From an uncultured Pseudomonadales bacterium (GTDB lineage: Bacteria; Patescibacteriota; Microgenomatia; UBA1400; UBA1396): 64,000 nucleotides of DNA. Below the pieces are notes generated by a model. That model was given only the letters and a program-made list of their open reading frames with translations, made no database searches and was not told the DNA's origin. The translations under genes were made by a program, and so were the position numbers. Positions 1 to 63,505 of the stretch are shown here, piece by piece (position 1 is the stretch's first letter; each line of letters starts with the position of its first letter). The stretch lies in NCBI GenBank assembly GCA_964603945.1, contig CAZRWP010000001.1:59623-123622 (forward strand), written 5' to 3'.

Positions 1-1041
1 ACCTGTGCGGTAAGACAGCGCGCCGAGGATCGAGCTAAAGGTTTTATATTAAATGTTGTTAAGCATTATCAGGAAAAATCTCAGCCACGGCCAAAAATTA
101 TATTAACTGGCTGCATGATTCACCACGGCCATGAAAAATTATATGAACTAATTCCGGCACTAGATGAGGTTCTGCCAATTAACGAAGTCGGTTTCAACCA
201 ATCTACTATCCGCAAAGACAACATTAATCTGGTTACCGGTCGGCGCCACGCTTGGGTACCGATCAGTAGTGGCTGCAATTCTTTTTGCACTTACTGTATT
301 GTGCCTTATTCGCGCGGCCGCGAGGCCTCGCGGCCGCTCGCCGACATCCTCACTGAAATTACTAATTTAGCCAATGAGGGCTACCAAGAAATTACTTTGT
401 TAGGCCAAAATGTAAATTCCTGGGGACTAGAAAAAGTTGGTGTTGGCTTGCGCAAACTGCTAATGCAGTCCGATCAGCCTCTACGCCGACAAGATATTCC
501 TGACAACTCGAGTCAATATTTTGCCGCCGATGGCACACCGCCATTTGTCTCTTTGCTCCAGCAAATCAGCGAAATCAAAGGTATTGAATGTATTCGGTTT
601 ATGACCAGCAATCCCTGGGATTTTTCAGATGAACTGATCAAGGAAATTGCCGCTAACCCCAAACTTGACAAGTTTATCCATCTGCCGGTCCAATCTGGCA
701 GCAATAATGTTCTTTATCGCATGAATCGAGGTTACACCAGGGAAAGGTACTTGGAAGTCGTCAATAAATTAAAACAGGCGGTGCCCGACGTCGCGATTGG
801 CACTGACATTATTGTGGGTTTTCCAGGTGAAACTGATGAAGAATTCCAGGAAACAGTTGATTTGGCTAAGCAGGTTGACTGGCATGTAGGCTTTGTGGCC
901 CAGTACTCGCCTCGGCCGGGCACTAGCGCCTGGCGATTATATGAAGATGACATTCCACCAGCCGTCAAAAAACAGCGCTGGAAAACTCTGGATGAAATCA
1001 TCAATAAATCTCACCAAGATAATCGGCCAGCAATATTATAA
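1..1041 (+). CDS. miaB: tRNA-i6A37 methylthiotransferase MiaB (radical SAM MTTase), 5'-truncated by window edge
   Basis: Frame 1 is open from nt 1 (..ILTGCMIHHGHEKL precedes the listed Met); radical-SAM CxxxCxxC motif 'CNSFCTYCIVPYSRG'; TRAM-like C-terminus; immediately followed by miaA. Confidence 0.85.
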   Translation, partial: TCAVRQRAEDRAKGFILNVVKHYQEKSQPRPKIILTGCMIHHGHEKLYELIPALDEVLPINEVGFNQSTIRKDNINLVTGRRHAWVPISSGCNSFCTYCIVPYSRGREASRPLADILTEITNLANEGYQEITLLGQNVNSWGLEKVGVGLRKLLMQSDQPLRRQDIPDNSSQYFAADGTPPFVSLLQQISEIKGIECIRFMTSNPWDFSDELIKEIAANPKLDKFIHLPVQSGSNNVLYRMNRGYTRERYLEVVNKLKQAVPDVAIGTDIIVGFPGETDEEFQETVDLAKQVDWHVGFVAQYSPRPGTSAWRLYEDDIPPAVKKQRWKTLDEIINKSHQDNRPAIL

Positions 1042-9842: not shown

Positions 9843-11222
9843 TTAGATTTTTCCAACCACTTCACCTACTGGCACCCGAATTTGCTCCATGGAATCGCGA
9901 TCACGCAAGGTGACGGTGCCGTCTTCCAGCGTCTGGAAATCAATCGTAATACAGGTGGGTGTTCCGATTTCATCCTGACTTAGATAGCGCTTGCCGATAT
10001 TTCCACGATCATCCCAGGCAATTGGATAAATCTGACTTAGCTCTTTGAAGATTTCATCGGCTTTGGCCACTAATTCTGGCTTGTTTTTTAAGAGGGGGAA
10101 CACAGCCGCCCGGTAAGGTGCCAATTCTTTAGGCAAGCGCAAAACAATCCGCTGATTCTCTTCGTCATGATAAAACGCTTCCAACAGAATCATCAGGAAA
10201 AGGCGATTAACACCAACTGCTGGCTCAATCACGTGTGGCAGGAACTTGCGACCGGTTGAAGAATCCACCACCTGCAGATCCTGGCCAGAATATTCCATAT
10301 GTTGTTTGAGATCATAGTCAGTCCGGTAAGCCAAGCCCCAAAGCTCCTTAAAGCCAAAGGGAAAGTTGTAATCTAAATCAACAGTGCGACGACTATAAAA
10401 TGACCGCTCCTCATCTGGATGTTCCCGCCAGCGCAAATTATCAGGTGAAATGCCAAGGTCCTGTGTCACAAACTGCCACATTTGGCCTTGCCAGTCACCA
10501 AAAATTGCTTCCCAGTCGGAATTTTCTGGATCAAAGAAATACTCAATTTCGGCCATCTCAAATTCCATAGTTCTAAAAATAAAGTTTCCAAGCGTAATTT
10601 CATTGCGGAAACCTTTCCCCGTCTGACCAACGCCAAAAGGCAGTTTCACCCTAGTGCTATCCAATATATTTTTAAAGGTCGTGAAAATTCCCTGCGCCGT
10701 TTCACCACGAAGATAAGCCTTAGATTCGGTTTCAGGGACAATTCCAATAGAGGTCTCAAAAAGTAAATTGAATTGTCTAACATTAGTCCAATTAAATCCG
10801 CCACAGTACGGGCAAGGAATTTTTTCCGTTTGAATTATTTGATCTAATTCACTATCGGGCAAACCCTCAACCTGTTTCTCCTCACCTTTAGCTTGATAAT
10901 ATTCTTCAATCAAGTGATCTGCCCGCTTGCGACGCTGACACTCTTTACAATCAATTAAAGGATCGGAAAAACCACCCACGTGGCCAGAAGCTTCCCAAGT
11001 TTTGGGATGCAAAATAATAGAGGAATCCAATCCAACCATATCAGGTCGCTGAGTAATAAAGCGTTTCCACCACAAATTTATCAGGTTGCGTTTTAATTCA
11101 ACGCCCAGTGGGCCATATTCGTAAGCATTGGCGAGACCGCCATAAATTTCTGAAGAAGGATAAACAAAACCGCGCCGCTTGCTTAAACTGACGATATCGT
11201 TCATTTTGTCGGATGGATTCAT
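9843..11222 (-). CDS. glyQS: Glycine--tRNA ligase, alpha2 homodimeric type
   Basis: 'RRGFVYPSSEIYGGL..YEYGPLG' N-terminus and class II aaRS motifs; 459 aa as in the dimeric (eukaryote/archaea-like) GlyRS. Confidence 0.85.
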   Translation of the reverse strand: MNPSDKMNDIVSLSKRRGFVYPSSEIYGGLANAYEYGPLGVELKRNLINLWWKRFITQRPDMVGLDSSIILHPKTWEASGHVGGFSDPLIDCKECQRRKRADHLIEEYYQAKGEEKQVEGLPDSELDQIIQTEKIPCPYCGGFNWTNVRQFNLLFETSIGIVPETESKAYLRGETAQGIFTTFKNILDSTRVKLPFGVGQTGKGFRNEITLGNFIFRTMEFEMAEIEYFFDPENSDWEAIFGDWQGQMWQFVTQDLGISPDNLRWREHPDEERSFYSRRTVDLDYNFPFGFKELWGLAYRTDYDLKQHMEYSGQDLQVVDSSTGRKFLPHVIEPAVGVNRLFLMILLEAFYHDEENQRIVLRLPKELAPYRAAVFPLLKNKPELVAKADEIFKELSQIYPIAWDDRGNIGKRYLSQDEIGTPTCITIDFQTLEDGTVTLRDRDSMEQIRVPVGEVVGKI

Positions 11223-11396: not shown

Positions 11397-11561
11397 TTAC
11401 TTTTCCAATACCACTTCCAGGCGATTCCAGTCTTCTCGCTCAAATTCACGCTCATAATCTCTTATCCAAAGTTTAAGCGCATCAAGTCGATGCTCGGCTT
11501 TTATACTTCGAGATTGCAAAATTGAACTGTCCTTTTTTAAATCACATCGCCAGTAAAACAT
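11397..11561 (-). CDS. hypothetical small protein (54 aa from internal Met; listed ORF extends into repeat element)
   Basis: ORF-track start at 11636 lies inside repeat copy 1; plausible start MFYW at 11561; no recognisable domain. Confidence 0.25.
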   Translation of the reverse strand: MFYWRCDLKKDSSILQSRSIKAEHRLDALKLWIRDYEREFEREDWNRLEVVLEK

Positions 11562-11603: not shown

Positions 11604-11716
11604 TGAGAAGGACCGAGAAGGACCGAGAAGGATCATCCTTGCCCCTCCGCTAGCCTGGAAGGATCATCCTAGGATGATCCTTCTTGAGGAAAACAAGGGC
11701 AAGGATGATCCTTCTC
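11604..11716. repeat. Nested-palindrome intergenic repeat element, copy 1 (forward orientation)
   Basis: GAAGGATCATCC-TTGCCC-spacer-GAAGGATCATCCTAGGATGATCCTTC-spacer-GGGCAA-GGATGATCCTTC; 12-mer occurs 4x (2 direct, 2 inverted); perfect 24-bp central palindrome; preceded by GACCGAGAAG tandem; near-identical copies at 57796..57917 and 63320..63413. Confidence 0.8.
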
Positions 11717-56658: not shown

Positions 56659-57789
56659 TTAGTACGTCGGCAGGAAAAATTTAACATTATCCTGATTAAT
56701 CACAACTTGAGGCAAATTTTTCTCCAGACGTAATCTGGCGGCCTTGGCCACCGCTCCCTTGAGATTGCGTTCCAGCGTACGAATTCCGGCGTCAAAACCT
56801 AACGGACGAACCATAGTTGGCCAAACATCTTCAGCAATAATCAGTGAATTAGCATCCATGCCGGCTTCCTGCAGAAGTTTGGGCATGACGTAACGCTGGG
56901 CAATCACCGTTTTTTCATCATCACTGTAAGAAGGCATGTCAATCCGCTCGACCCGGTCCATCACGGCCGTGGCAATTGAGCGGGTATTGTTAGCAGTGGC
57001 AATAAACAAGACCTGAGACAAATCCACGGGGTAATCCAAATAGTGGTCAATGAAGGCATAATTCTGCTTGGGATCCAAGAGCTCAACCAGCACACCCATG
57101 ATGTCCATCCGAGCATCTTCCGCAACCCGGTCAATTTCATCTAAAAGCATAACTGGATTTCGAGTTTTGGCTTCCGCCAGACCTTTAACCACCCAGCCAG
57201 GTTCTGCTTCTAGGTGCAGTCTGGATTGGCCACGCAGGTCGCGCGCCGATCCCATTCCGCCAAAAGGAATACGGACGATTTCGCGCCCCATGGCCTCGGC
57301 AATAGAGTAAGCAAAGGTGGTTTTACCGGTTCCTACCAGACCTACTAGCAGGACAATTGGCGCGCGTATCTGACCACGCTCCAGCGTGTCTGACTGAGCG
57401 GCCTGCTCAGCCTGTTGTTTTTGAAATTTAAGAATGGCAATGTACTCCAAGATGCGATCCTTAACCGATTGCATACCATAGTGATGCTTTTCAAAAATCT
57501 GCTTAGCTTGCTCTAAATCCAGCGTGTCTTCCGTGGTAACTTCCCAGGGAACTTGAGTCGCCCAATCTATGTATTTGGTTGTGCGCTCATAAGCTTCACT
57601 GTAATTTTGCGTCTGGGCGGCGCGCTCTAATAAACGAATTTCCCGATCTAATTTTTGCTTAAGATCGTCTGGCGCCGTGGAATCAGCAATCCGCTGTTTT
57701 AAAGCACTAATCTCATCGCTCACTACCTGATCAGGCACATTATTGGTCATTGAAATATTGTCATCAGCCATACAGATACTATAAACCAT
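56659..57789 (-). CDS. Lon-homologous AAA+ ATPase lacking both LON N-terminal (PUA-like) and C-terminal protease domains
   Basis: Aligns to Lon central helix + AAA+ module: 'YIDWATQVPW', 'HYGMQSVKDRILEYIA', Walker A 'LVGLVGTGKTT', Walker B 'MLLDEID', 'FDAGIRTLERNL' sensor-2 region; stops where Lon protease domain would begin, 4 nt from convergent HNH gene; start set at MVYSIC outside repeat. Confidence 0.7.
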   Translation of the reverse strand: MVYSICMADDNISMTNNVPDQVVSDEISALKQRIADSTAPDDLKQKLDREIRLLERAAQTQNYSEAYERTTKYIDWATQVPWEVTTEDTLDLEQAKQIFEKHHYGMQSVKDRILEYIAILKFQKQQAEQAAQSDTLERGQIRAPIVLLVGLVGTGKTTFAYSIAEAMGREIVRIPFGGMGSARDLRGQSRLHLEAEPGWVVKGLAEAKTRNPVMLLDEIDRVAEDARMDIMGVLVELLDPKQNYAFIDHYLDYPVDLSQVLFIATANNTRSIATAVMDRVERIDMPSYSDDEKTVIAQRYVMPKLLQEAGMDANSLIIAEDVWPTMVRPLGFDAGIRTLERNLKGAVAKAARLRLEKNLPQVVINQDNVKFFLPTY

Positions 57790-57795
57790 CGGATG

Positions 57796-57917
57796 AGAAG
57801 GATCACTGCTAAGAAGGATCATCGCCAAGAAGGATCATCCTTGCCCCTCCTCTTGCCTGGAAGGATCATCCTAGGATGATCCTTCTTGAGGAAACCAAGG
57901 GCAAGGATGATCCTTTA
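57796..57917. repeat. Nested-palindrome intergenic repeat element, copy 2 (forward orientation)
   Basis: Same architecture as 11604..11716 (GAAGGATCATCC x4 around CCTAGG-centred palindrome, TTGCCC/GGGCAA inner inverted repeat); preceded by degenerate AAGAAGGATCATC tandem; ~35 bp upstream of Lon-like ORF start. Confidence 0.8.
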
Positions 57918-58548: not shown

Positions 58549-60858
58549 TTAACTGCGTCCGCCACCGTAGCTACCGCCGCGTCCGCCGCGGTCGCTTCGA
58601 CCACCGCTTCGACGATCTCCACCACGGCCGCCACGATCTCCGCCATAGCCACCTCGACCGCCGCGGTCGCTTCGACCACTGCCGTCATCTTGGCGTCCGC
58701 CACTGCGACCACCACTGCTATCGCCGCGGTCTCCACCGCCTTGCTGGCGGCGTTCTTGGCGTTCAGCCTCAGCTTGCTCACGTTCTTCTTTGGAAAGCAT
58801 GGTCAGGCGAACTCGGTCGCCATCAACTTCCAAAACCTCAACGTGAACGACATCATCCAGATTAACCACTTCATGTGGATCACGGACATAACCGGTTGCC
58901 ATCTGAGAAACGTGAACCAAGCCATCGCGGCCTGGCACCATTTCCACAAAGGCACCGTATTCCTCAATCCGGGTAACTTTACCATCAAATTCCATGCCTG
59001 GTTCAAAGGTCATCATCATGTTACGGATGGCGTGAACAGCGCGATCAATGTCTTCCTGGATTGGTGAAGCCACCGTGACTCGGCCATCTTCATCAACCGA
59101 GATCTCTGTCTTGGTTGATTCCTGCAAACTTCGGATGTTTTTGCCTCCGGGACCGATCAGCTCGCCGATCTGGCTAACCAGAATCTGTACAGCTTCAATC
59201 TTGGGGGCATTAGCGGCCAATTCCTTACGGGGCTCAGGCAGACATTCGAGCATCTTGCCTAAAATGTGCAAGCGGCCGATTCTAGCCTGTTCTAAGGCCT
59301 CAGTCATCACTTCCATTGGGATGCCATCAATCTTGATATCCATCTGAATAGCGGTTATGCCTTCATCTGTTCCGGCAACCTTAAAGTCCATATCACCGAT
59401 ATGATCTTCCAGTCCCTGAATGTCAGAGAGCACGACGTACTCATTGGTGTCATCATTGCGCATTAAGCCCATGGCGATTCCCGCCACCGGCTTGCGGATT
59501 GGCACACCGGCCGCCATCAGTGACAGCGTACTGCCACAGACAGAAGCCTGGGAGGTAGAACCGTTAGAACTCATGACTTCTGACACCACATGAATGGTAT
59601 AAGGGAATTCTTCCTGAGACGGGATAACCGGGAGCAAAGCTCGTTCGGCTAGGGCGCCATGGCCGATTTCGCGGCGCTTGGGCCAACCAACACGGCCGGT
59701 TTCACCAGAGGCAAAGGGAGGCATGTTGTAGTGGTGAATGTAACGCTTCTCCTCTTCACCTTCCATGTCTTCAATTAGTTGAGCAAAGGCGGGAGAAGCC
59801 AAAGTTGTAATCGTTAAGACCTGAGTTGCACCGCGTTTGAACATGGCTGAGCCATGTGCAGTCGGCAGTAAATCAACTTCACAGGTAATCTCGCGGATTT
59901 GATCAGTTTGGCGTTCATCTGGACGAATTCGCTCTTCAAAGGTACGGCGGCGAGCTTCCCTCTTCATTAGTAAGCTGAAAATCTCTCCAAGCGGAGCCTC
60001 TTCCAAAGCCTCGTCCTCGGCAATCAGTTTTTCCTTGAGTTTAGCGATGGTGTCATCTTGAGGCTGAAGCAAAGCTTTAGCTTTAACGGCTTGCGCAATT
60101 TCTGACTGATGATTCTTCCAAATCTTCTCAATTAATTCTTCATCCAGTTGAGGGGCCTCAAAGACTGATTTCTCTTTGCCGATGGCTGATTTCATCTCTT
60201 TTAAGACCGAGTTTATGCCCTTGATTTGTTCATGAGCCGCTTCCAGGGCTTTCACCATTTGGGCTTCACTTACCTCAAGCGCACCAGCCTCAACCATAAC
60301 AATGGCTTTATCCGTACCAGCGACAATCAAGTCGAGGGCAGAATCAGTCAATTCTTCATAGGTCGGGTTGTAGGTGAATTTGTCTTCTTTGGGCAAATAA
60401 CCTACGCGCAGACCACTGATTGGTCCGTTGAAGGGAATTGAAGAAATTTCCAGCGCGGCCGTGGTGGCAACTAAGGCCAGCATGTCCGGGTTGTTAACGC
60501 TATCAACCGATAAAACAGTGGCGATAACCTGAACTTCTCGCTTATAACCGTCTGGGAACATCGGACGAATACTTCGGTCAATGACGCGGGCGCTCAGAAT
60601 GGCTTCATCCGAAGGGCGGCCTTCACGCTTGACCCAGCGACTGCCTTTAATTTTGCCGCCAGCGTACAGTTTTTCAATGTACTCGACTTGCAGGGGGAAC
60701 CAACCTAAATTGGATTCACCGCCAAGAGCCACCGTGGCGTGGACAACAGTCCCGCCACATTTGGCTAACACGGCTGCTTCTGCTTGTTGGCTAAAGCGGC
60801 CGACTTCTAGGAGAATTTCTTTTTCTCCAATAGGAATGGAAAATTGTTTTACTTCCAT
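58549..60858 (-). CDS. pnp: Polyribonucleotide nucleotidyltransferase (PNPase) with ~70-aa C-terminal RGG/RG-rich tail
   Basis: Two RNase PH domains, KH and S1 domains; C-terminus 'GGGDRGDSSGGRSGGRQDDGSGRSDRGGRGGYGGDRGGRGGDRRSGGRSDRGGRGGSYGGGRS' encoded by imperfect DNA repeats (58552-58760). Confidence 0.9.
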   Translation of the reverse strand: MEVKQFSIPIGEKEILLEVGRFSQQAEAAVLAKCGGTVVHATVALGGESNLGWFPLQVEYIEKLYAGGKIKGSRWVKREGRPSDEAILSARVIDRSIRPMFPDGYKREVQVIATVLSVDSVNNPDMLALVATTAALEISSIPFNGPISGLRVGYLPKEDKFTYNPTYEELTDSALDLIVAGTDKAIVMVEAGALEVSEAQMVKALEAAHEQIKGINSVLKEMKSAIGKEKSVFEAPQLDEELIEKIWKNHQSEIAQAVKAKALLQPQDDTIAKLKEKLIAEDEALEEAPLGEIFSLLMKREARRRTFEERIRPDERQTDQIREITCEVDLLPTAHGSAMFKRGATQVLTITTLASPAFAQLIEDMEGEEEKRYIHHYNMPPFASGETGRVGWPKRREIGHGALAERALLPVIPSQEEFPYTIHVVSEVMSSNGSTSQASVCGSTLSLMAAGVPIRKPVAGIAMGLMRNDDTNEYVVLSDIQGLEDHIGDMDFKVAGTDEGITAIQMDIKIDGIPMEVMTEALEQARIGRLHILGKMLECLPEPRKELAANAPKIEAVQILVSQIGELIGPGGKNIRSLQESTKTEISVDEDGRVTVASPIQEDIDRAVHAIRNMMMTFEPGMEFDGKVTRIEEYGAFVEMVPGRDGLVHVSQMATGYVRDPHEVVNLDDVVHVEVLEVDGDRVRLTMLSKEEREQAEAERQERRQQGGGDRGDSSGGRSGGRQDDGSGRSDRGGRGGYGGDRGGRGGDRRSGGRSDRGGRGGSYGGGRS

Positions 60859-62796: not shown

Positions 62797-63222
62797 TTAC
62801 ATCGACATGGCGGCTAGATCGGCCACATATTCCTCAACTAAGGGGCTCTCTTTTGGCTCAGCTCTTAAAGAGAAGATGCGGTTGCCGTCTTCATCATAGG
62901 AAATTTCAAAATAAACGTCAGAAGCCAGTCTTACCTGAACTGGTTCTTCATAATCGTTTTGGTTCAACTTATTCATAATTGCCTCTCCAGCCTGCGGCTC
63001 TATTCTTAATAACGGCGATAATAATCTTGCACCTTCAATCAATCGACCAATAATTCGCAAATGCCAGCGACTCTGATCATTAAGTGGCAGAAGTGCGCCG
63101 GTGCTTTCATCATCGGCTTGATCCCTTAATCTCAGTACGGCTTTGCCGGCCAAAGTCACTCCCCGTCTAGCTAATTTATCAGGGAAAGATCTTCTTTCTT
63201 GTACCGGTGCTAACTGATTCAT
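62797..63222 (-). CDS. hypothetical protein
   Basis: 141-aa ORF with normal GC and coding periodicity; no recognisable domain. Confidence 0.4.
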   Translation of the reverse strand: MNQLAPVQERRSFPDKLARRGVTLAGKAVLRLRDQADDESTGALLPLNDQSRWHLRIIGRLIEGARLLSPLLRIEPQAGEAIMNKLNQNDYEEPVQVRLASDVYFEISYDEDGNRIFSLRAEPKESPLVEEYVADLAAMSM

Positions 63223-63319
63223 CGGTCCTCCTCCCTGTTCTTTTAAAGGTATTACACCTACGACATGAAAGAAGGCGGTAAGGGAGCAGTAATGGCTGAG
63301 TAGGGAGATTTGTGTTGGT

Positions 63320-63413
63320 GAAGAAGGATCATCCTTGCCTTTAATTTACTCAAGAAGGATCATCCTAGGATGATCCTTCCAGGCAAGAGACGGGGCAAGG
63401 ATGATCCTTCTTC
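63320..63413. repeat. Nested-palindrome intergenic repeat element, copy 3 (inverted orientation)
   Basis: Reverse-complement arrangement of copies 1/2: GAAGGATCATCC-TTGCC..spacer..AAGAAGGATCATCCTAGGATGATCCTTCC..spacer..GGGGCAAGGATGATCCTTCTTC. Confidence 0.75.
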
Positions 63414-63431
63414 ATTCCTTCTCCACGCCCA

Positions 63432-63468
63432 GCAAAAAGCCCGATGGCTGTGAGGCCACCGGGCTTAA
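63432..63468 (-). terminator. Rho-independent terminator of hup
   Basis: On minus strand: AAGCCCGGTGGCCTCACAGCCATCGGGCTT hairpin (9-bp stem, one mismatch) followed by TTTTTG. Confidence 0.55.
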
Positions 63469-63505
63469 TTTTCACAAGATTTAAACTTAATCTTGAAAGT
63501 TGAAT

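Follow-up and report, generated by a model that had tools for sequence, protein, structure and literature searches.

REPIN-RAYT systems combine REP doublets that form hairpins with REP-associated tyrosine transposases (RAYTs), and have been described in Pseudomonas, Escherichia coli and other Proteobacteria (PMC3116915, PMC3337134, PMC5581495). Classical REPINs consist of two REPs with variable spacers between them, and the foot of the REP hairpin carries a conserved 5′ tetranucleotide tag, GTAG or CGTC (PMC3733652). Here, we describe a family of palindromic elements of ~90 bp, three copies of which lie in a 64,000-nucleotide stretch of contig CAZRWP010000001.1 (termed the window throughout, at its full length), together with a short transposase gene that adjoins a further copy on a metagenome contig. 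The window repeats are likely to be a REPIN-like doublet family, which a RAYT-like transposase would mobilise in trans, because their properties fit the published definition of REPIN-RAYT systems (PMC3337134, PMC5581495). A search of the literature found no paper with the 13-mer of the element and none linking REPIN, RAYT or REP elements to the Candidate Phyla Radiation (CPR, or Patescibacteria). The three copies, the remnants that flank them and one neighbouring hairpin are listed below.

11604..11624, plus strand: start of the arm in two degenerate direct repeats (GAGAAGGACC, twice), abutting copy 1.
11625..11716, plus strand: core of element copy 1 (nhmmer E=9e-31), with a 20-bp perfect outer inverted repeat, outer arms at 11627-11638 and 11703-11714 and a 26-bp central palindrome at 11658-11683; it lies between the stop codon of a recO-like gene (11750) and a minus-strand operon of a small open reading frame (ORF) and glycyl-tRNA synthetase (GlyRS).
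57795..57826, plus strand: two degenerate arm copies with a 16-bp period (GAGAAGGATCACTGCTAA / GAAGGATCATCGCCAA), abutting copy 2; the one at 57813-57824 has a single mismatch.
57827..57916, plus strand: core of element copy 2, lying between the divergent genes of a Lon-like AAA ATPase (minus strand, ATG at 57771) and a NUDIX protein (plus strand, 57981).
63319..63414, minus strand (inverted relative to copies 1 and 2): element copy 3, with a 21-bp perfect outer inverted repeat, between the terminator of the HU gene and an ORF of 141 amino acids (aa; ATG at 63222).
63414-63424, minus strand: degenerate arm remnant (GGAGAAGGAAT) beside copy 3.
63433..63470, minus strand: intrinsic-terminator-like hairpin and T-run of the HU gene, directly upstream (on the minus strand) of copy 3; this is context and lies outside the element.

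A preliminary description of this DNA, made from its letters, had proposed that the three copies share one architecture in which the 12-mer GAAGGATCATCC recurs in direct and inverted orientation, and this was confirmed at all three sites. Each copy holds four 12-mers, two forward and two reversed. Every exact match in the window falls inside the three copies, and allowing up to two mismatches yields 24 matches in the window against 4.3 expected, a number reached by none of 100 shuffles. The layout consists of an arm (GAAGGATCATCC followed by TTGCC), a spacer of 13-14 nucleotides (nt), a central palindrome (GAAGGATCATCCTAGGATGATCCTTC), a second spacer of 13-14 nt and the reverse arm. The central palindrome had been put at 24 bp but is in fact 26 bp long and perfect, while the TTGCCC/GGGCAA inverted repeat described as an inner feature is present as sequence but forms the inner extension of the outer arms, giving perfect outer inverted repeats of 20-21 bp. 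Inside each 12-mer lies the dyad AAGGAT[C/G]ATCCTT, which spans 13 bp in the outer motifs and 11 bp in the inner ones and is imperfect at its centre alone; the four dyad centres of each window copy are 31, 11 and 31 bp apart. Identity between copies 1 and 2 is 96%, and copy 3 is 91-93% complementary to both. Each copy has an orientation because its two spacers are mutually non-complementary, and this asymmetry defines the plus direction.

The surroundings of the copies required some revision. The degenerate half-sites noted in front of copies 1 and 2 are real and are also found beside copy 3; across the family, partial arm duplications next to elements are enriched ~12-fold (8 observed, 0.65 expected). 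Copies 1 and 2 do lie upstream of minus-strand starts, but the ~35 bp first given is too short for the distance to the likely start codons: the core of copy 1 is 63 nt from the ATG at 11561 (42 nt when counted from the degenerate repeats), and that of copy 2 is 55 nt from the ATG at 57771. The placement of the inverted copy 3 at ~100 bp upstream of a minus-strand gene holds, with 96 nt measured to the ATG at 63222. The repeats also passed a check for assembly artefacts, the copy-3 site being reproduced in independent JGI, ENA and Logan assemblies.

The exact 26-mer core occurs in 33 metagenome contigs from four samples (L001-L033, from the same or closely related organisms); the locus of copy 2 itself is found again on two of them, L015 and L030. 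Contigs and window together contain 38 instances at 27 flank-distinct sites, or ~25 loci once L016 and L027 are merged, which bears out the extrapolation from three copies to dozens genome-wide. All 38 instances align without gaps and are evenly divided between the two orientations (19 versus 19), and in the nhmmer profile the arms are conserved at 90-100% and the spacers at 50-90%. Copies are intergenic only, and lie between tandem, divergent and convergent gene pairs, often 9-40 nt from a gene end; four cases involve convergent genes (L003, L019/L032, L028:7156 and L033). Degenerate, partial, isolated-arm or longer composite members were not found by nhmmer in the window and L001-L033 (~210 kb). 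No target-site duplication of 2-9 bp was detected at any boundary offset, the best result being 5 of 25 sites for k=2 at one offset and zero for k>=3, and no target consensus was found at the insertion sites. The exact 26-mer has 0 matches in 185,579 species-representative genomes, from which the organism or its variant of the element is absent; it has 0 matches in viral contigs as well. An Rfam scan of the window returned three tRNAs only and nothing at the elements.

Two candidate explanations of the motif were tried and rejected. The first is avoidance of a restriction site (GATC or CCTAGG): GATC occurs 269 times against 242 expected, so is not avoided, and CCTAGG is only mildly low. The second is an outward promoter at the element end, for which no −35-like hexamer was seen at a fixed distance from nearby −10-like boxes. 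The palindrome also leaves a mark on sequence assembly. Logan contigs L115-L118 and L122, from five independent runs, all terminate at one shared base, midway through the 26-bp palindrome, and these systematic breaks at its centre imply that the element fragments assemblies.

Folded as RNA, the copies reach −55 to −65 kcal/mol on both strands (z −7.7 to −10.4), and folded as single-stranded DNA they reach −30 to −33 kcal/mol (z −7 to −9.5); the values for copy 1 are −61 to −65 kcal/mol as RNA (z ~−8.7) and −33 kcal/mol as DNA (z −7.8). The earlier claim that the elements can fold into long hairpins is upheld by these computed nested hairpins, which are very stable (z about −8 to −10). Across 13 aligned elements, drawn from 8 lineages, pairing in the nested hairpin reaches 89%, and both sides change in 23 of its 28 pairs. 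Its covariation score of 0.587 compares with 0.19 for shuffled alignments (0 of 500 reach 0.587) and with at most 0.175 for slid-partner controls. The arms of the element change in compensatory fashion across lineages. Two side-by-side hairpins were considered as an alternative fold and rejected, since their covariation is 0.296 against 0.587 for the nested form and their centre is mismatched in most sequences.

A candidate partner for the element is encoded on one of the metagenome contigs.

L031:4104-4538: gene for P0001, a Y1/HUH transposase of 144 aa, starting 41 nt after an element copy and divergent from the 23S rRNA gene.

The element that flanks this gene contains the 26-mer core that recurs at ~25 loci on metagenome contigs and has three occurrences in the 64-kb window. 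L031 overlaps L014 at 99.6% identity, and L014 carries a dispersed copy of the element. P0001 matches the Pfam family Y1_Tnp (PF01797) over profile positions 4-118 of 121, and a paralogue encoded on L011 matches it with 28 bits, above the 23-bit cut-off. In NCBIfam, REP_Tyr_transpos (NF047646) is the sole family matched, by P0001 and by the L011 paralogue, and both of these ~145-aa proteins follow the pattern YHxYNRG...NHFH...YILSNP. Among 35 homologues the HUH residues H64 and H66 are invariant and Tyr124 (of YILxNP) is nearly so. The best sequence match of a P0001 profile in the PDB is 4ER8, the E. coli TnpA-REP (a RAYT) bound to a REP hairpin. The same structure is the top fold match (template modelling score, TM, 0.68) for an AlphaFold2 model of P0001 with a predicted local distance difference test score (pLDDT) of 93, ahead of the ISDra2 and IS608 TnpA structures.

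The second RAYT-like paralogue (L011:988-1425, with an orthologue at L128:502-939) shares 40% identity with P0001. Different inverted repeats of ~40 bp (ACATTCTC...GCCCGTCAC / GTGACGGGC...GAGAATGT) bound it, a tRNA gene follows, and no nested element adjoins it; by analogy with the multiple distinct RAYTs of Pseudomonas, its partner may be a different repeat family. L031:204-865 contains two short minus-strand ORFs just past the 3′ end of the 23S rRNA. One of them begins MDDGARNRKSAYFNTQQF... and may be a fragment of a LAGLIDADG homing endonuclease, which it resembles.

Homologues of P0001 are found in six other CPR lineages (P0002, 78% identical; P0009, 51%; P0014, 50%; P0003 and P0012, 49% each; P0011, 46%), and an element of the same architecture lies beside the gene in 6 of the 6 contexts. 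The arms are lineage-specific (GGATCATCC, GGATAGTCC, AGAAGTTCT, AGAACGCRC, GGGTAATCC and GGTTAATCC), and motif spacing across lineages is 29-31 / 11-24 / 29-31 bp, the distance from outer to inner motif being always 29-31 bp. The six contexts are as follows, with the identity of the protein to P0001 in brackets.

L125 (78%): AGGATCATCCTT arms kept, with the outer-stem extension changed from TTGCCC/GGGCAA to TTGGGGG/CCCCCAA; element 5′ of the gene.
L134 (51%): arms GGATAGTCC/GGATATTCC with TTACAAA/TTTGTAA; element 5′ of the gene.
L127 (49%): arms AGAAGTTCT and centre CTTAAG; elements on both sides of the gene.
L129 (46%, a contig of 1.08 Mb): arms AGAACGCRC; elements on both sides of the gene, in inverted orientation.
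L131 (50%): arms GGGTAATCC; elements on both sides of the gene.
L135 (49%): arms GGTTAATCC, stuttered; element 5′ of the gene.

In L031, L129 and L135 the gene lies upstream of the 23S rRNA gene and is divergent from it, and adjacency to 23S rRNA in L125 and L134 was judged from conserved flank sequence; L031 and L129 also have their downstream gene order in common. Among the sequences searched, each transposase protein was found at one genomic place per lineage. The wider family of Y1 proteins is very large (5,080 matches, many labelled Patescibacteria). More distant CPR homologues of ~210-220 aa (L136, L138) have simple flanking palindromes of 23 nt and not nested elements. In L138 the palindrome ACTTAGGGGTCCGTCCCCTAAGT lies at 9975-9997, 10153-10175 and 10667-10689, one copy being within the 5′ part of the called gene; in L136 the palindrome TTTCTAGGKTCTGACCYTAGA precedes the gene start (10001) by ~10 nt and recurs at 10618-10640.

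The resemblance to REPIN-RAYT systems extends to both partners. The element is ~90 bp long and made of inverted units, as is the 89-bp GI REPIN of SBW25, and each unit contains an imperfect palindrome, with C/G at its centre here and AA/TT in SBW25. Further common properties are the long hairpin, the greater conservation of arms than of spacers, the exclusively intergenic location, the dozens of copies and the lack of a target duplication. The gene is short (~145 aa), of the HUH/Y1 type, flanked by the element and paired with it in a lineage-specific manner; its position is conserved in related lineages, and other repeats flank a second, distinct paralogue. The differences are that the host is a member of the Patescibacteria/CPR, that the protein is distant from the curated RAYT model (28-47 versus 80 bits), that the gene adjoins the 23S rRNA gene, that no conserved GTAG or CGTC tag was seen, and that the element contains four motifs (two outer, two in the central palindrome), does not vary in length and keeps its spacing fixed at 31/11-14/31. 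The initial assignment of the repeats as REP/MITE-like, where MITE stands for miniature inverted-repeat transposable element, therefore survives in its first half, given ~25 loci, stable hairpins and a RAYT-type gene adjoining a copy and, in six other CPR lineages, co-varying versions of the element. It is not supported in the strict MITE sense, as there is no duplication and, in the ~210 kb searched, no insertion sequence with matching ends.

The proposed mechanism can be divided into folding, recognition and copying. The ~90-bp non-autonomous palindromic element comprises two inverted halves, each with two imperfect dyads AAGGAT[C/G]ATCCTT, and this arrangement lets it fold on single-stranded DNA into a long nested hairpin, in which an internal loop separates an outer stem of ~20 bp from an inner one of 11-13 bp. 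The hairpin would be recognised and copied in trans by the HUH/Y1 RAYT-type transposase, seen at one locus beside the 23S rRNA gene. From the examples of E. coli TnpA-REP and IS200/IS605 (IS608) we infer that the transposase binds and cleaves the hairpins, and copying would presumably proceed via single-stranded DNA. Putative effects on neighbouring genes, such as promoter spacing and mRNA hairpins, would be secondary. We lean somewhat towards the broader proposal that CPR genomes keep a vertically inherited REPIN-RAYT-type pair, in which a single 23S-anchored RAYT-like gene is accompanied by a co-evolving 'double-doublet' element that, in one lineage or more, has expanded to dozens of copies per ~1 Mb.

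Comparison of orthologous sites offers a view of gain and rearrangement. All assemblies with the identical HU protein that reach beyond the HU gene contain copy 3. In the closest available relative (L034; HU 96% and PNPase, polynucleotide phosphorylase, 82% identical to the window) the orthologous site is cleanly empty, and the window carries ~118 extra bases there, copy 3 included. The terminator-like hairpin and T-run occupy the same position at HU in L034, L036 and L037. In L036 and L037, which are more distant Woesebacteria, a diverged element of the same architecture lies at the post-HU-terminator position, with arms GGTTTCTCCT/AGGAGAAWCC and centre CCTAGG; this site could be a hot spot. 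An in-place flip of the element is seen between L016:3849-3936 and L027:1315-1402, which are orthologous loci of two related strains and have collinear flanks that are 85-95% identical. The copy on L014 lies between DNA ligase and Fic genes, and the same gene pair is 45 nt apart in L129, too close to accommodate an element. Contigs L002/L012 and L006 have one element flank in common and unrelated sequence on the other side, owing to either recombination between copies or chimeric assembly across the repeat.

Several observations weigh against a REPIN-like family mobilised by a RAYT-like partner. P0001 scores 19.1 in Pfam against the 23-bit cut-off, and NF047646 scores of 28.2 bits (P0001) and 46.7 bits (L011 paralogue) fall below the 80-bit cut-off, making P0001 a distant RAYT relative and no equivalog. 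No transposase homologue is encoded within the 64-kb window, and the link between the window organism and L031 is indirect, being drawn from the same element sequence, the same metagenomes, the overlap of L031 with L014 and similar G+C content. A GTAG or CGTC tag at a fixed position was not found in the window family, although GTAG appears, inconsistently, in the spacer of some relatives (L125, L127, L129, L131). In L031, L125 and L134 just one side of the gene carries an element. Within the 17-20 kb that surround the gene in L129 and L131, the flanking copies are the only ones seen, and proliferation is therefore documented for the window lineage alone. Just one empty site was found, no strain-level polymorphism at the HU site was seen among assemblies with the identical HU protein, and the occupied site in L036 and L037 could mean long residence or function and not recent insertion.

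Four other explanations have been weighed. The one that survives best, though we consider it unlikely, is an autonomous insertion sequence of the IS200/IS605 type (a gene with flanking hairpins), of which the 90-bp elements would be PATE-like deletion derivatives. Such elements and PATEs have in common with our family the Y1 HUH fold, hairpin-forming ends, no target-site duplication and a presumed single-stranded DNA mechanism. The presence of elements on both sides of the gene in L127, L129 and L131, the near-equal closeness of P0001 to the ISDra2 and IS608 TnpA structures and to TnpA-REP, and the position of P0001 below the RAYT equivalog cut-off all suit this explanation. IS200/IS605 elements, however, have distinct left and right subterminal hairpins, are multi-copy and are horizontally mobile, whereas here both flanks are the same complete element and the unit that is dispersed, a full symmetric doublet, does not contain the gene. 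The gene itself appears fixed at one syntenic locus: it holds the same 23S-adjacent position in at least five lineages, at 46-78% identity, and one place per lineage was found. The nhmmer survey of ~210 kb gave no isolated arms or longer composites, and the C-terminal YIxxNP motif is of the RAYT type.

A structured RNA, kept for a function at the RNA level (an mRNA-stabilising or RNase III-processed hairpin, a terminator or a small RNA), would account for the very stable folds on both strands and the strong compensatory change across lineages, and several copies are probably co-transcribed, lying 9-40 nt from flanking genes. The co-variation is predicted equally by a hairpin substrate of single-stranded DNA, and the occurrence of the element in either orientation and in all intergenic types, without a U-tract or an Rfam match, renders such an RNA-level function improbable; nor would an RNA role explain adjacency to a transposase gene. 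An RNA-level side effect of the element is possible, as is known for REP and Correia elements.

The preliminary description had also suggested a super-operator, that is, an array of operators for a dimeric regulator of the adjacent genes. The dyad centres at 31/11/31 bp, roughly 3, 1 and 3 helical turns, would be apt for this, as would the better conservation of arms than of spacers and the location of many copies 10-35 bp from TATAAT-like boxes. The suggestion is nevertheless unsupported, and we regard it as very improbable. Copies are found in convergent settings and in both orientations (19 versus 19) with no gene-strand rule, their neighbours have unrelated functions (GlyRS, Lon-like ATPase, NUDIX, SmpB, ferredoxin, DNA ligase, Fic), and the site in L034 is empty despite conserved flanking genes. 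Moreover, the asymmetric spacers are kept among copies, which argues for copying and not for convergent selection of sites.

Finally, a classical MITE moved by a DDE transposase that recognises GAAGGATCATCC terminal inverted repeats is hardly credible, for although the perfect 20-21 bp terminal repeats, uniform length and intergenic dispersal are of the kind expected, there is no 2-9 bp target-site duplication, no full-length insertion sequence with GAAGGATCATCC ends in the window and L001-L033, an internal repetition of the motif that MITE ends do not require, and a consistent association with a Y1 transposase. Correia elements of Neisseria, ERIC, RUP and other MITEs are likewise intergenic palindromes of ~100 bp near promoters or genes and can form RNA hairpins if transcribed. 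Correia, ERIC and RUP-type MITEs are flanked by target-site duplications (TA in the case of Correia), and DDE-type transposases are believed to move them, in contrast to the family described here, with no duplication and a Y1 transposase as the associated gene.

The relatives of the window PNPase place the host in the Patescibacteria/CPR, of the Microgenomatia type, the best matches being metagenome-assembled genomes at 82% and 77% identity, followed by Woesebacteria at 63%. Genes that flank the window elements are housekeeping genes (GlyRS, RecO, DUF4012, Lon-like AAA ATPase, NUDIX, PNPase, S15 and HU), and in this compact genome the three copies fill three of the larger intergenic gaps in the window. 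Further features of the neighbourhood are listed below.

311-340: near-perfect G+C-rich palindrome of 30 bp (CGCGCGGCCGCGAGGCCTCGCGGCCGCTCG) within an ORF at 1-1041 (plus strand), unrelated to the element family.
11397-11561, minus strand: ORF of 54 aa between copy 1 and GlyRS, with a strong ribosome-binding site (AGGAGG) and no Pfam match.
57771-57790: TATAAT-like box 6-8 nt before an ATG, without a Shine-Dalgarno sequence; the same is seen at L005:4180-4211 and in the L006/L012 flank.
58550-58715, minus strand: 3′ end of the PNPase gene, with a C-terminal tail of ~90 residues rich in Arg, Gly and Asp (GGDRGG... repeats), encoded by a degenerate periodic DNA repeat of 9-36 bp; a similar tail occurs in L035 and L036.

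The closeness of the TATAAT box to the ATG suggests that these element-adjacent genes have leaderless transcripts.

REPIN-RAYT systems are discussed as a rare form of mobile DNA that persists vertically for very long periods and may be co-opted by the host, and most of their characterisation comes from large-genome Proteobacteria. A co-evolving pair of element and transposase in highly streamlined, episymbiotic Patescibacteria of ~1 Mb would widen this known range, with compensatory change across seven lineages (that of the window and six others) and expansion to ~25-45 copies in one of them. The element offers a compact biochemical substrate, with four identical dyads of 13 bp at fixed spacing, and explains recurrent contig breaks in CPR metagenome assemblies; in these genetically intractable organisms it could help to tell strains apart or generate variation close to promoters. 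If the proposal is true, long-lived intragenomic replicators would extend to the most streamlined bacteria known, and because streamlined genomes tolerate little junk, their presence there would hint at a role at the level of the host.

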